DNA from: Minutocellus sp. GHC0000111
Taxonomy: Eukaryota
Direction: 5' to 3'
Assembly (NCBI GenBank): GCA_977018835.1
Contig: OZ361261.1
Coordinates: 1,798,001 to 1,862,000 of the forward strand
Length of the DNA: 64,000 bases
In this document: positions 637 through 12,535 of the stretch, one piece after another
Layout: every line of letters starts with the position of its first letter
Position numbering within the stretch: the stretch's first letter is position 1
The notes under the pieces: model-generated
What the model was told of the DNA's origin: nothing
Database searches by the model: none
The model's input: the letters and a program-made list of their open reading frames with translations, nothing else
Translations under genes and position numbers: made by a program

Positions 637-3600
637 CCTTTCGAGTTCAGAGGATTTGAAAGTGACGTGATGATGACGTATTAGAAACACGACCACACCA
701 GACCAAAAATCCAAGCTCACTTTTTCTAACTCCGAGGAATAAATGACGGCCAAGATGGAAGTCGGGGCAAGAACCAAGTTATGGTCACCAACTTCTACAT
801 ATAGTCGAGAGATATTGTGCATCAGAACCAATAAATGTACATTATGTGATGATTTTTTTCGACATTTGCATTCCTCACCCCGGGAAAAAATACATTTTTG
901 GAAGCACCAAATCAAAATGTAATGAATAGAAATGGACATGCTATGATAAGTTATAGCAAATCAATGACTCCATCGTCTTCATCATTTTCATCTATGTCGT
1001 CCTCAATGTCATCATCTTCGCCGGGAGCATCAATTGGCCAGAGTGGTTCACCATCCTCTTCAGCTTCTTCCTCGGCAATTTTTGCGAGACCAGCCTTTCC
1101 CCGTCTGGTCTCCACAAGATTGTTACCGCCACGACTTCTCTTGATGTTGTTACATATCACTGGAAGTTTTCCAAATACATTGAGAAAGGCCTCTTTTGAT
1201 GCGACATTGGCCCATACTTTCATCACAGTCTTGTCAAGAGCATTCGCATCATTCTTCTGACCGCGATGCTCCTTTTCGACGGCCGACTGCAAAGACATCC
1301 AGATGCCGAGATCAAGAACATTTGTCTCGGGCGACCGAGGAACCTGCTGGATTATCTCAATCTTATATTTGTTTTTGAGGTCCTCGGTGTACTTCTCAAC
1401 TGCTTCATTGGACCCATGACCGCCGGCATTGTCCATCATAAGATGTGTAACATCAGACTCCTGAATATTTTGTGGATCCCACTTCACCCAATGATGTGCG
1501 TCTCGAATCGCCTTCCCGACCTCATTCACAGTCTCCAACATCCATTTGGAGTCGCAGCTACAGTCCTTGGTAACCTTATCGCCCCGTTGATACCGCACCC
1601 CGAGCTCAAGGTCGTCGATCTCAACCTTCACCTTCTCTCCATTGCTGTCAGGAGTGCGTCGCTTGAGACTCGAGATCTTTTGATTGTAGCCAACAGCGGC
1701 ATGCTTGCGATGGCCGGCGGTCATGTCAGCATTCTCGTCGTAAATGTCGCGCCAATCTTTGTCATTTTTAGCGCATCGTTGACCTTAGCATCTGGAGAGA
1801 AATTCTGATTACGCGTAAGCTTTTCCACCTTCTGCTCCCTGGCGACTCTCTTGATCATGATGCGCCCATTGAAATCAACGTCTTTGGTTTCATCCTTCAT
1901 TGGTCGGCCAACAACTCCAAGACACATAACTTTGACAGGGGGTCTTCTGGATCGAATTTTCGGGCGCTTGCCTCAGAAGCATGGACAGACGCGAGGTTCG
2001 GACTGCTTAGTTCTTCGTCAGAAAGTGGCAGGCAACATCTTGATCTTTCGTCGCCGAGTAGCAGTGTAAAACCACTTTTCATCAAGATGCGCTACAGGAA
2101 TGTTGGGATCGGTCGCAATGTCCTCCCACTTTTCGATCCAATCAAGTCGCTTCCTACAACATTCCGGGGGTGAGCCTCGGCTTCTCGATCGACGACTTCT
2201 CCTTACCGCCTTGCTTTTTCCACCAGCGAAAAAGCTGAAGACGATGGAGACTAATTGTCAGCCTGTCTTCATCTGGAGTAGCTGATTTTGCGCTCATGCA
2301 GTCAGCTAGCTCCTTAAAGGTTGCCATCGCACCCTTCATCCGAGTGGCATGCCGATGCAGCTCGCGGAGACATCCTGGCTCCTTCTCCTCGACCATGTCC
2401 GTGCATGCCTTCCTTCCACGAACCTCCTTTCTGCAGATGGGATTGCTGATGCCATCAGCAAGGCTTTTGTAGAGCTGGTCTCTCCACTTGTAAAGCTGAG
2501 AACCACCGGTTGACTTGGCACAACCGTGATCGTGCGCAACTTGCCAACACGCGGCAGTTGCAACTTGTTGCCGGTCTTCATGCGTGCGAGTTGGGTCGCC
2601 GCATCCCCACCAATCCGCGAGAGCCACGGCGCTGAACCGCATTCTTTCATTCGCCTGCTTTTCTTTTCTGATTGGTGTTGGTTCGGTGACGGTTGCATTG
2701 GGACGAGGAGGACGGAGCATGTCATCGTTGGCCATCCGAACAACAAAAGTCGAGGCCGAGAGCGACCTTTACCTGTTCATCAATGTCACTGGAGGTGGCA
2801 CAGACAACGGAAGTGTCGGCTCCTCCTAAACCTTCATCATTGGGGGAGGCTGCAGCTAGCTGCTTCAGTGGCGGAAGCATCACCAGTTCCCTTCAGCATG
2901 CTGAGGAGACTTGCTGGCATCCAACCCAGTTTCTTGGCCTCGTCGACTAGTGATTTTACTCTTGCTTCGCAATGCGCTGACTGCACCTCCTTTCTGTGAG
3001 CTGACAACCTCTCACCTAGCTTAGTAGCTAAGACAGTCGAGCGCCCAGAGAACAGAACTTCATCGGCATTTCTTTTCTCGTGCACCTTCTGTCCCTCCGG
3101 TCCAGAGAATTTCGGGTGGTTGTCCTCCTTTTTTTTACGCAACCTGTGAGCACAAACATAAAGCGCCCTGCGTCTTGTCTTCCCTCTCTCGGCCGACACG
3201 TCGACAAGTGCAACTTCAAACTACAATGCTCCTTGAGATGTTGCTGCATGTCCTTCCATTTTTCCTCGTTGTACTGTAGCTCATACTTTCCTCCACCGAC
3301 GGACTTGGAACGCAACAAGTCGGCCTCGATGAAAAGCAGGGAGGGGACGTCTTCCCATTTCTGCCGAGAACCACCACAAATGTCATCTTTGCCGCGCAGG
3401 AATCGGGGGTTACTCTCCACCACAGATCCTTACCAGCCCTTCGAATGACATCTGCTGCAAGGAGAAAGGCCATGGGGATAGGAGGAGGGGCCGTCCTCTT
3501 CTTCGCCGACGACGGTGACGGTTTGGCGGGCGAATTTGAGACCACCGTGGCCGCTTCTTCGACACACGTGTTTGCGCTCGGCGATGGTGTTTTCGGCTCA

Positions 3601-8885: not shown

Positions 8886-9382
8886 CGGCCTGAAATGGAA
8901 AAATATTGATGATAGATCTAGCTAGGCAATAGGTTCTGCTGTTATAATCAGGACAAGTTTAGCATGTATCTCGCGTGAGTGGTATCTATCTTGTCAAAAA
9001 TGAGGGTTTCTTCTGAATGACGTTATGCAGTTAGTGGTTTCCTTCTGTCGTCACAACAAGCAGCACAAGAAGGAGCGGCACAAGATCATCAGCGACCTTC
9101 ATTTCTTCCGTTGACTTTTTACCGCGTCGGAGGGAGAAAGCAACGCCCACTTCGCCGAGCGAGGCGGTTTGCTGGTATTGGCGTCTATGCGCGGCAATTG
9201 GATTGGTGCGCATAAAGGCCATGGATAGCAAGATGATCGTCGACGAACAGAGGCGTAGCAGCAGCAGGAAGCGACAACGCCAAAGTGCAACACAAAGAAG
9301 TTCTTACAAACCCAACGCATGCATGATCACAAACTGTCACAACTCGAACAATACCGGTAATAGATCTGCCTTTCGAAACAAG

Positions 9383-10981
9383 ATGAGATCGAACAAAAAA
9401 AGTAACGTCTTGGCACTCACCCTGACCCTATTGTTGGCCACATTTACCAGCTGCTGCCATGCCAAGGAAGACAAGGATAACAAGAATGGCAACGCGGGAG
9501 CAGGTCTGGTCGACCCAGCCAAAGCGCACTGGAATCATGCCGCGGCCAAGGCCGGGTACGTCGTTCACGTCGTCGCCGACGGTCTCCGTCCAGATCACAT
9601 GCTGGATTATCCCAACTTTGCCTACCTGAAGAGTCATGGAGTCGGCACGGGCAATGCTCGTAATCAGTTCGAGAGCCCGCAGACTCTGCCCAATCACATC
9701 TCGATTTTCACAGGGCTCTCGGTATCGCAACACGGACACTTTGAGGACGGAGATGGCAAGGCCAAGCTGACGTCGTTTGCCAACATCTTCGACCTGGTCA
9801 AGGCCGTGGGGGGAACCACCGCCTTTTATGGCGTCAAGGAAAAGTTCAACACCTTTGTCGACAACAAGTGGCAGATCGACAACTACGTCTTCACCAAGTG
9901 GGCCCATCGTGTGATGAACAATTGGATGGACGATATGACGGCGAATCCATACACCTATTCCTTTGTCCACTTTCGCGAAGCCGATCGAGCCGGACATTTG
10001 AGTACCGGGGCCAACAGCACCCAGTATTCCGACGCCGTACAGCAGATGGACGAATACATCGGCCAAATGCTCGATTTCATCAGGACCAATCCCGCCCTCA
10101 ATGGGAATACCGCGATTATACTCACATCTGACCATGGCTTTGAAGAGGTTGGCAATCACAATGATCTCGATGATCCGCTCGTCTTTAAAGTGCCGTTCTA
10201 CGTGTATGGTCCAGCTGTACTCCAAAACAAGGACATTTACGAACTCAGCAACCTCAAAGATCCTGGCAATGAGCGGCTAACACCCTCGTGCATCTTCAAC
10301 GCATACTCTGGCGTAATGGCGGCATCGCTGCTTGGGATTAATTATGCCGAGGGACCGTTTTCGAAACAGTATCTATCTGTGACGGGTGCCAAGGACAGCT
10401 CTAGCGCTGCTGCAATGAGCAATCAGGCTGCGATAAATCAGGCACCGATCGAGGTCTTACCGCCGAGTGGAGTTGGCGTCACTCCGGCAGACGACCCAGA
10501 TAACTGCGTCTACTGTCCCAATGAACCCAACGATGACATGAAGGTAAAGGGACGAACATGTGAGGCTTGGAGGCTCGTTCCTCAGAAGTGTCTATCGCCA
10601 TCCAACCAATGGATCGCGCAGCAGACCTGCCAGCGAAGTTGCTACTTTCACGGCAACCCCTACGATTCGACCATCTGCTGTCGAAATGCCGAGCCTCCCA
10701 CTGCTCCCACTTTGCCGGTACCCAATCCTCCTGCAGACCCCCAGCCTGTGATCAGTGAGCCTGCTATCAGTGAGCCCGTCCCTGCTAATCCTGAACCTGT
10801 CACCAATGAACCCATTGCTGATAATCCCGACCCCGTCATAGCTCCCGAGCCTGTCGCTGATGTGCCTAAGCCGATCGAAAATGCACCGGTGACCGATCCC
10901 AATCCACCTCCGCCTTTACCGATAGACACGCCGATCGAAATATCTCAGATACTGGCTGAGCAAGCTGCCGCGGCATTTTAA
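9383..10981 (+). CDS. Secreted alkaline phosphatase / type I phosphodiesterase-family protein with Cys-rich module and Pro-rich tail
   Basis: Signal peptide; VVADGLRPD, TLPNH, DRAGH and TSDHG metal-binding motifs. Confidence 0.8.
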   Translation: MRSNKKSNVLALTLTLLLATFTSCCHAKEDKDNKNGNAGAGLVDPAKAHWNHAAAKAGYVVHVVADGLRPDHMLDYPNFAYLKSHGVGTGNARNQFESPQTLPNHISIFTGLSVSQHGHFEDGDGKAKLTSFANIFDLVKAVGGTTAFYGVKEKFNTFVDNKWQIDNYVFTKWAHRVMNNWMDDMTANPYTYSFVHFREADRAGHLSTGANSTQYSDAVQQMDEYIGQMLDFIRTNPALNGNTAIILTSDHGFEEVGNHNDLDDPLVFKVPFYVYGPAVLQNKDIYELSNLKDPGNERLTPSCIFNAYSGVMAASLLGINYAEGPFSKQYLSVTGAKDSSSAAAMSNQAAINQAPIEVLPPSGVGVTPADDPDNCVYCPNEPNDDMKVKGRTCEAWRLVPQKCLSPSNQWIAQQTCQRSCYFHGNPYDSTICCRNAEPPTAPTLPVPNPPADPQPVISEPAISEPVPANPEPVTNEPIADNPDPVIAPEPVADVPKPIENAPVTDPNPPPPLPIDTPIEISQILAEQAAAAF

Positions 10982-11096
10982 CTACTGCATAGTTCGGACA
11001 ACTTAGACATATTATTCGTCATGCGTTACTAGAATTTGTTAATGTATCATCTTGTTCATGTACATGTATTTCTAGACTTCGCTCCCTTTTGAAAGT

Positions 11097-11188
11097 AAAA
11101 GCGCTTCGTCATCGATGAAAGCGATGAAAAGTGTTATACCAGTAGTATTCTTTTCCTCGCTTCATTCATCAAGTCATTCAACGCCCTC
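11097..11188 (-). promoter_or_regulatory. SECIS element in the 3' UTR of the selenoprotein
   Basis: Minus-strand RNA folds by eye into helix I GAGGGCGUU/AGCGCUUUU, A-UGAC...UGAC non-Watson-Crick quartet, helix II UUGAUGAA/UUCAUCGA, unpaired AAG ~10 nt above the core, and an apical stem GAAAAG/CUUUUC. Confidence 0.75.
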
Positions 11189-11228
11189 AGAGTAGGTACA
11201 TATCGCACATTCTATTGCATTCAAAAAT

Positions 11229-11780
11229 TTACTGCAGATAATCGGGAACGTCAATATCCAAATCTTCCAATGCCTCGATCATTTCTCTCTTGACGCCGGC
11301 TTTGGCTCTTCGGCTGGTAATCTGCCGAGTTCCGCCTACCACTTGTTTGCCCTCCGAATCAATGATTCGGAGGTACCCCCATCAGGAATTCTCTAGGCCG
11401 GTCGCCCACTTTTTCATTGCCTTATTTCGTTTGGGGTTGGATCGATCCCATGTGTTGAAGGCGCAGGGCACAAATAGTTCCTCAGCGGCTCGCTTGATGG
11501 CTGGATCGGTAAAGATTGCGCCGGCATCCTTACATCCCTGTCAGCCACTCCATTCGACAAAGTTGGCAAATATTGGCTTGCCAGTCTGAGCCGCAATGTC
11601 GATGGCAATCTGATAATCACCATGACGAGCATCCGACGTGAGATTGACGTATTGGATGGTGCCAAGCTCGACGTAGGAGTGGGATGGCATTGTAGGAATG
11701 GAGGAAAGCACGTCGTCGTTGTCGTTGGCAGCAGGCTGCACTGTTGCTGTGTTTCTCTTGCTTTTGAATATGTTTCGCAT
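11229..11780 (-). CDS. Thioredoxin-fold selenoprotein (resembles the bacterial VPGUxxT-type Trx-like family) with two UGA codons
   Basis: Read-through gives MPSHSYVELGTIQY...GKPIFANFVEWSG-U-QGC...ELFVPCAFNTW...ENS-U-WGYLRIID...VPDYLQ-TAA; TGAs at 11541-11543 and 11382-11384; alternative start 11690; SECIS downstream. Confidence 0.85.
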
Positions 11781-11960
11781 TGTTCTATTATTATCTTGAG
11801 AGAGGAAATGGAGGGTATGCGAATCAAGATATGAACTCGTCGCCTGCAATGTCACGCAAGATGTTGCTTGGTGAAAGTTTGAATGATTGACGGAAAAGTG
11901 CTTGAGCTGGGAGGCTTTTTCCACGTTGATAAGTCGACTCACTCGATTGTTCGAAGAATC

Positions 11961-12058
11961 TGTCACAAGTCGGCCGGCCAAAAGAGGGCCGGTTGGCGCG
12001 CAAATTGTCACAAGTCGGCCGGCCAAAAGAGGGCCGGTTGGCGCGCAAATTTGTGACA
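11961..12058. repeat. 45-bp perfect tandem duplication bounded by inverted TGTCACAA/TTGTGACA
   Basis: Units 11961-12005 and 12006-12050 are identical and followed by TTGTGACA. Confidence 0.9.
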
Positions 12059-12535
12059 TTCGTCGTCCTCGATCAATGGCAATAATTCATCCCACCAAGG
12101 CGCAGCGCACCTCGACCAGAGCATTTAGATTACAATCAAAGAAAGTGCATGTGAGTAGAGATCTCTCGAACCATTCAAAATTTGATTTGCGAGGGGCAAG
12201 AGTCAATAAGTCAGGTCAACCTGAACTCGGCACGAACGAACTAATCTCTGAAAGGGAAGTGGCGCCAAAGCCAGACATTCAAAAGAAAAAGTAGATGAGC
12301 ACTTGTGACATACCCAAAGTAGACGACAGAAGTAACAAACCAGCGAGTTCTGATTCCTCGATCGACCAACTACGAAGCAGCATGAGAAACGTATCCATTC
12401 AGCTTCCGGCTGATCACAGCCCAACGGCCCACAGTAGTCGCAAACAGATGCAGCAAGACGGACAGTGGAGTAGCAGCCGCGAACAGCAAAACAGCAGGAG
12501 GAGCTCTCTCCAAAATCCCCGACTTGCTCGACACC

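Follow-up and report, generated by a model that had tools for sequence, protein, structure and literature searches.

In a window of 64,000 nt from the eukaryote Minutocellus sp. GHC0000111 (GenBank assembly GCA_977018835.1, contig OZ361261.1, positions 1,798,001 to 1,862,000; "the window" denotes this whole stretch, and positions are counted from its first letter), the minus strand carries a transcribed, diatom-type gene of 183 codons which very probably specifies a small thioredoxin-fold oxidoreductase with two selenocysteine (Sec, U) residues; Sec is the predicted reading of two conserved in-frame TGA codons, likely by way of a hairpin in the 3′-nontranslated region (3′ UTR) that resembles a selenocysteine insertion sequence (SECIS). 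The gene likely represents a predicted family of two-Sec selenoproteins that gene callers have missed, because every relative for which readable DNA is available has both of the TGA codons.

Translation of 11780-11229 on the minus strand with TGA read as Sec yields a single frame of 183 codons (Table 1), in which site 1, the first TGA, has the context W-S-G-U-Q-G-C-K. An earlier note on this DNA, made from the letters alone and called here the original prediction, had placed the frame, both TGA codons (11541-11543 and 11382-11384) and the terminal TAA (11229), and translation reproduces each of these positions. The list of open reading frames (ORFs) made with translation table 11 gives 11541..12059 on the minus strand, terminating with ...FVEWSG at the first TGA; gene annotation truncates the frame at an in-frame TGA. 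A general reassignment of TGA in this genome is unlikely, since, of the 20 open frames in the window that reach 300 codons, 6 terminate with TGA.

Table 1. Coordinates of the gene, its predicted recoding elements and its transcript in the window, and of the paired elements in three related loci.
Feature	Position	Strand	Details
Coding frame, 183 codons + TAA	11229..11780	-	translation with TGA = U; ATG 11780-11778
TGA 1, predicted Sec80, first residue of the U-Q-G-C redox motif	11541..11543	-	Cys83 codon 11534-11532
TGA 2, predicted Sec133, loop before strand beta-3	11382..11384	-	context E-N-S-U-W-G-Y-L
TAA stop codon	11229..11231	-	translation with TGA = U
SECIS-like hairpin, 3′ UTR	11096..11189	-	helix I 11189-11180 / 11105-11096; AUGA 11177-11174; GA 11110-11109
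Metatranscriptome contigs, approximating the mRNA	11072..11813	-	X6: 11072-11690 + 11662-11813; X7: 11135-11607 + 11578-11807
Paired SECIS-like elements, related loci	L001:871-959 + ~1065-1120; L002:1695-1780 + 1865-1922; L003:764-821 + 903-963		

The assembly was compared over 10950-11900 with contigs from four public runs, two of DNA (X2 and X5) and two metatranscriptomes (X6 and X7, from two studies). All four runs cover both TGA codons (pieces 11085-11607, 11085-11554, 11072-11690, and 11135-11607), and zero differences occur at 11382-11384 or 11541-11543, though others are listed nearby: 11555 C>G (E76Q) in three runs, 11462 C>T, a few further changes in one run, and 11134 T>A in three runs, the last in the apical part of the hairpin at a position unpaired in the fold. 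The original prediction had kept as a fallback that the second TGA might be a TGG to TGA error or an allele, to be settled from the reads at 11382; this fallback is refuted, as TGA stands there without any difference in the contigs of all four runs and in all 11 related loci described below. The second TGA is no artefact of the assembly. Both DNA runs also contain a second, haplotype-like contig over 10970-11114, with five substitutions and a 6-nt deletion.

The gene is transcribed. The metatranscriptome contigs stop at 11072 and at 11813/11807, and contigs of the DNA runs extend beyond on both sides; the limits of the RNA contigs are a weak hint of the transcript ends. From these limits the hairpin, which is contained in the RNA contig 11072-11690, lies inside the mRNA, and 11780 is the first ATG within the RNA contigs. 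No splice joints are reported in the contigs of the four runs over the compared region, that is, an intron was not seen.

Relatives with DNA were found as 11 loci on Joint Genome Institute (JGI) metagenome contigs; L005 equals L006 and L007 nearly equals L008, which leaves nine distinct sequences, 51-71% identical to the window protein. The conservation check which the original prediction had named could be run on these loci, and TGA is present at both sites in all 11 (G-U-x-G-C-K and S-U-W-G). In the window gene and the seven complete loci, the codons flanking the TGAs vary synonymously with TGA itself fixed (Ser TCC/AGC/TCA, Gly GGG/GGA/GGT, Cys TGT/TGC), the two sites are 53-54 codons apart, and 50-51 codons separate TGA 2 from the stop. 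The differences per codon position amount to 0.28/0.20/0.60 between the sites and 0.45/0.32/0.60 past site 2. Varying synonymous flanks, constant spacing and the codon-position pattern together show coding constraint beyond both TGAs; coding conservation downstream of the UGA is thus seen in the codon-position differences, in the constant length of the frame and in the rest of the fold, which is encoded there. In two of the 11 loci, L010 and L011, the frame is lost some way past site 2, where an intron or a frameshift is possible.

How the family appears in protein databases reflects the way in which TGA was handled by the callers. A word-indexed search returned 38 proteins, most of the full-length ones with Trp (W) at both sites; an exhaustive search of 1.84 billion representatives gave 156 matches at E ≤ 0.001, and 180 proteins were re-aligned. 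As listed by class, in 62 the alignment stops at the C-terminus of the protein just before U80, and in nine it stops just before U133; 14 comprise only the part after U133, four run from after U80 through site 2, 76 cover both sites, and 19 fall in no class. Among the 76, the residues at site 1/site 2 are W/W in 19 (TGA called as Trp), unclear/W in one (P0026, with a non-homologous N-terminus), Cys/Asp in six, including the NCBI-annotated Epithemia clementina protein P0024, Ser/Asp in one (V-P-G-S-S-G-T), and Ser/Leu in one; 36 are bacterial-type proteins with [VI]-P-G-C at site 1 and either Ala (E-P-A-W-N-Y) or a gapped W-N-N-P-V-V at site 2, and 12 have degenerate motifs. P0029 is identical, letter for letter, to the translation of L003 except for W in place of TGA, which shows that the W residues come from a caller using a table with TGA as Trp. 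A search of shorter proteins recovered the truncated stub among MMETSP transcripts and also from Skeletonema menzelii, as a EukProt record; judging from these stubs, diatoms and other marine protists possess the family, and its mis-calling is routine. Standard gene calling misses it, and what the databases hold are the 62 N-terminal stubs, middle or C-terminal fragments, or "Trp" read-throughs.

By this alignment, site 1 falls on the first Cys of the CxxC motif of the relatives, a classical position for Sec/Cys exchange: TGA is conserved there or replaced by Cys, the latter in six eukaryote-type and 36 bacterial-type proteins, in keeping with the thioredoxin-fold UxxC selenoprotein of the original prediction. 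Site 2 follows another pattern; TGA is present in 11/11 loci and Asp or Ala is found otherwise, and a Sec at site 2 is confined to the clade which also has Sec at site 1. That a second predicted Sec lies away from the active-site motif, as was also originally proposed, agrees with the four runs and the 11 loci. Since the non-Sec relatives have Asp or Ala at this position, the second Sec is, as far as the alignment goes, not a Cys replacement, and homology-based programs which seek pairs of Cys and UGA would not predict it, strictly conserved as it is. P0028, a protein with Cys at site 1 (G-C-Q-G-C), has its predicted end immediately ahead of site 2 and may represent a Cys80/Sec133 form; if so, the second Sec can be kept on its own.

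The definition of a SECIS used here calls for an AUGA...GA quartet flanked by helix I and helix II, the latter of about 9-14 bp, and for an AA that is left unpaired. The original prediction had proposed a hairpin with this quartet about 40 nt downstream of the frame, and folding bears it out: the 5′ end of the hairpin (11189) lies 40 nt past the TAA, helix I has 10 bp, an internal loop (5′-GAAUGAC / 3′-UGACGA) places AUGA opposite GA, and helix II has 8 bp, a UGA bulge and 5 bp, followed by further stem. The fold of 11200-11095 (minus strand) has a free energy of -30.8 kcal/mol (z = -4.3), and 0 of 200 shuffled sequences were as stable. A strict descriptor ([AG]UGA, 1 nt, 8 or more pairs with no more than one mismatch, 1 nt, GA, and 4 bp or more in helix I) has 8 matches per 128,000 nt, that is, in both strands of the window, of which only the one at 11177 on the minus strand sits behind a protein-like, TGA-containing frame. 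The hairpin of the window is more than chance. The other matches (2686+, 14649+, 28482+, 33816+, 34513+, 35440-, and 28041-) are regarded as background, none of them following a protein-like TGA frame.

Similar elements are present in the relatives. The strict descriptor has five matches there, distributed over four of nine 3′ UTRs (3,796 nt), versus about 0.24 expected at the rate of the window, and of 12 candidate sites picked by hand, 11 adopted an AUGA/GA hairpin under constrained folding. L007, L009, and L010 show textbook spacing (AUGA-N10-12-AA). The 3′ UTRs of L001, L002, and L003, which are mRNA or genomic contigs, contain two SECIS-like AUGA/GA candidates each (Table 1), the window gene one. 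An alignment of the L002 and L003 UTRs shows two conserved islands, G-U-G-A-U-A-U-G-A-C-C...GA and C-C-U-G-A-A-U-G-A...U-G-A-(A/G)-A-A; in both elements the kink-turn (K-turn) cores are kept and the sequence of helix II has changed, yet still pairs. A MAFFT alignment of 10 SECIS-like elements was not structurally consistent.

The kinship with bacterial VPGUxxT proteins which the original prediction had suggested is found in profile searches, where theirs is the nearest curated family. The window protein matches NCBIfam NF041383 (VPGUxxT family thioredoxin-like (seleno)protein, type 2) with E 5.5e-13 and 49.2 bits over profile positions 9-132 of 287, and NF041382 (type 1) with E 1.8e-11. Four distant [VI]PGC relatives exceed the curated NF041383 cutoff of 275 bits (P0110, P0113, P0130, and P0143, with 312-360 bits; a fifth scores 274), so that true members are among the distant matches. 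Since its own score is 49 bits against this cutoff and the C-terminal domain is absent, the window protein is, by profile, a single-domain relative of the bacterial VPGUxxT family and not a member. Pfam PF13899 (Thioredoxin_7) gives 15.3 bits (E 0.022), below its gathering threshold of 27, though at the level of the fold the likeness is clear.

An AlphaFold2 model was computed from an alignment of the window protein, eight loci and four Cys or Ser forms (mean predicted local distance difference test (pLDDT) 81.6, predicted template modelling score (pTM) 0.76). It is a thioredoxin fold, with a beta-alpha-beta ... beta-beta-alpha core whose helix 1 has the redox motif at its N-terminal end: residues 1-33 are disordered, strands span 70-75, 104-109, 136-140, and 147-150, helices span 81-89, 93-102, and 157-173, and U80-x-x-C83 is at the start of helix 81-89. 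Two short helices follow past strand 104-109, and a loop (126-135) ahead of strand 136-140, the third, holds U133. In Foldseek, the best matches are 3f9u, DsbH (2ju5), ERp19 (1sen), AGR3 (3ph9), and DsbD-gamma (2fwe), with E 1.5e-5 (for 3f9u) to 1e-3 and probability 1.00 for 3f9u, 2ju5, 1sen, and 3ph9; phmmer finds 3f9u with E 0.008. These Thioredoxin_7/DsbD-gamma-like proteins have in common with the window protein the fold and the motif at the start of helix 1; they differ from it in being only 11-20% identical and, per the entries listed, in having no Sec or second chalcogen before strand 3.

From this arrangement a mechanism can be proposed. The SECIS-like hairpin would recode both UGAs, a single SECIS serving two UGA codons in this gene. 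The nucleophilic attack would be made by Sec80, which lies where helix 1 begins, and Cys83 would resolve the intermediate as a selenenylsulfide, as in U-x-x-C and C-x-x-C enzymes of the thioredoxin fold. In thioredoxin folds the loop preceding strand beta-3 bears a cis-proline and packs against the active site, and for this reason Sec133 is likely a second redox-active selenol by the centre, where it might act as the diselenide partner of Sec80 or as a relay. In the W-N-N-P-V-V relatives a Pro is aligned two residues after site 2. The charged selenolate of Sec133 would take the place of the Asp found in Cys-type relatives. The second Sec is also a natural case for the study of a selenolate lying outside the classical redox motif.

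No signal peptide is apparent, by inspection, in the disordered and basic N-terminal 33 residues, and a cytosolic or membrane-peripheral location is therefore expected. Many relatives begin with a short, basic and conserved M-G-(I/F)-F-G-R-K-K-K ahead of a variable disordered stretch, and the window protein with M-R-N-I-F-K-S-K-R-N (11780-11682, minus strand); the conserved basic N-terminus may be a signal for membrane association or targeting. N-myristoylation was considered and dropped, as most relatives do not fit the PROSITE pattern and the window protein starts with M-R-N.

Several observations weigh against a gene with two Sec residues and a SECIS. The original prediction had described an unpaired AA in the hairpin; the hairpin does contain AUGA-N11-AA, but the minimum-energy fold leaves only the first A free, the one in the UGA bulge, so that the canonical AA is only partly unpaired. 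Among the relatives, L005 is without a SECIS-like constrained fold, the second element of L001 is without a clear helix I, and the first elements of L001, L002, and L003 have no AA. A scan of 10900-11900 and of nine related loci with Rfam 15 at E ≤ 10 returned no SECIS family, the rows obtained being chance-level matches to snoRNAs and lncRNAs. At site 2, non-Sec relatives never carry Cys, which is unusual for a catalytic Sec, and that U133 lies close to U80 we infer from the topology of the fold.

Among the other ways to explain these data, the one that survives best holds that only TGA 1 is read as Sec and that TGA 2 serves mainly as a stop; the main product would then have 132 residues, without strands 3 and 4 and the last helix, and the part downstream would rarely or never be translated. 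Such an outcome is improbable. Sec insertion at a second UGA costs efficiency, which would favour termination, as would the Asp or Ala, instead of Cys, of non-Sec relatives and the lower conservation past site 2 than between the sites; yet the 50-51 codons beyond stay open at constant length and with the codon-position pattern of a coding region, strands 3 and 4 and the C-terminal helix are modelled at high pLDDT downstream, so that a fold cut at residue 132 would be incomplete, and the triplet is TGA throughout the 11 loci, where a plain stop could have drifted to TAA or TAG.

Marginally less probable again is that TGA 2 is decoded as Trp or Cys by near-cognate tRNAs and that the protein has one Sec only. 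TGA is one base away from TGG, and no homologue has Cys at site 2. Under this explanation, however, TGG or TGY would be expected in some relatives and is found in none of the nine distinct sequences; there is a SECIS-like element on the same mRNA, and the relatives of one subclade have two of them. Also, the forms without Sec at site 1 are without TGA at site 2 (the six Cys/Asp, the Ser/Asp and the Ser/Leu proteins), P0028 being the exception, in which the frame stops there. A pseudogene or assembly artefact, that is, a Cys/Trp gene with two nonsense changes, can be dismissed as extremely improbable in spite of the nearby differences between assembly and read contigs (11134, 11462, and 11555), as these touch neither TGA and four runs from separate studies agree, the same two TGAs are present in 11/11 loci of other organisms with identities (51-71%) that exclude a single contaminant, and the gene is found in metatranscriptome contigs.

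A gene in which both TGAs specify Sec has to be placed among known selenoproteins, and thioredoxin-fold selenoproteins with a U-x-x-C motif and a SECIS in the 3′ UTR are well known, many of them from marine algae. With the bacterial VPGUxxT proteins (NF041383, NF041382), the window protein shares a homologous thioredoxin-like domain with the Sec or Cys at the same position after Pro/Ser-Gly, and some algal relatives retain F-P-G-U (F-P-G-U-Q-G-C) or V-P-G-S-x-x-T (V-P-G-S-S-G-T). Its own motif W-S-G-U-Q-G-C keeps G-U and the spacing but not V-P, and has the resolving Cys where the family name has Thr, the Cys form of the motif being V-P-G-C-x-x-C; further, it lacks the C-terminal domain, at the position of its second Sec the bacterial proteins show Ala (E-P-A-W-N-Y) or a gap, and its predicted recoding element is a 3′ UTR hairpin of the eukaryotic type, whereas the bacterial SECIS adjoins the UGA. 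The bacterial family is named "hypothetical protein OS_HP5" in the review PMC13188914, and full-text searches for "VPGUxxT" and "OS_HP5" led to only two reviews, both of prokaryotic selenoproteins. The algal family connects a bacterial selenoprotein family of ocean metagenomes (VPGUxxT/OS_HP5) with eukaryotic phytoplankton. In the bacterial-type NF041383 proteins P0110, P0113, P0140, and P0143, the C-terminal domain faintly resembles MsrA and MsrB/A models, with scores of 18-25 bits that stay far short of the cutoffs; as a lead, this superfamily may use its thioredoxin-like domain to serve a partner resembling methionine sulfoxide reductase.

More than one UGA recoded per mRNA, as predicted here, is also a feature of other eukaryotic selenoproteins. 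SELENOL has a UxxU diselenide and SELENOP has two SECIS elements, a situation which the paired SECIS-like elements of L001-L003 resemble. MSP is a eukaryotic selenoprotein with two Sec residues (Lobanov 2007, PMC2375036), and PDI_e has a GUGUU motif (Jiang 2020, PMC7539508). The window protein differs from these multi-Sec families in that its Secs are 53 residues apart and not in one motif, and it has no sequence relationship to them.

A "Trx-fold selenoprotein" described from Ostreococcus and Thalassiosira pseudonana as homologous to a bacterial counterpart (Lobanov 2007, PMC2375036) is likewise algal and of the thioredoxin fold. According to the supplement of that paper it has homologues in chicken, Arabidopsis and rice, and three motifs of the window protein are absent from the supplementary alignments (four files); the vertebrate and land-plant homologues, together with the missing motifs, indicate a different family. 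The original prediction had placed the protein outside the standard eukaryotic families, and this holds with respect to the Trx-fold selenoprotein, the one family which the comparison reached. Jiang 2020 (PMC7539508) counts 42 algal selenoprotein families, among them "TlpA" (thioredoxin-like, with a hemerythrin domain) and "Hypo"; text searches found no publication on the window family, which could be listed under either of these two names. None of the motifs occurs in two supplement files of Seblastian candidates (PMC3753652), and a full-text search with three motifs of the window protein gave 0 occurrences among the matches listed. It is put forward only tentatively, and with the odds rather against it, that this is an undescribed eukaryotic family of a 20-kDa enzyme in which the second Sec evolved at a site that had never been Cys (Asp in Cys-type, Ala in bacterial proteins) and lies in the loop of the fold turned towards the active site, Sec80, Cys83, and Sec133 form a three-chalcogen centre capable of a diselenide, and one subclade uses two SECIS elements in the manner of SELENOP. 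The family would have a bearing on the selenium demand of diatoms.

Two features of the neighbourhood may be mentioned. Upstream of the gene, about 150-240 nt from the 5′ end of the RNA contigs, a 45-nt unit, which contains the palindrome GGCCGGCC, is perfectly duplicated in tandem at positions 11961-12051 (2.0 copies, 100% match); the duplication may act as a promoter element, or it may be just a small insertion. On the other side, an ORF of 592 codons on the plus strand (9203-10981), with a Cys-rich and Pro-rich C-terminus, runs towards the selenoprotein gene and stops at 10981, about 90 nt from the RNA contig end at 11072, so that the 3′ ends of both genes lie almost back to back.

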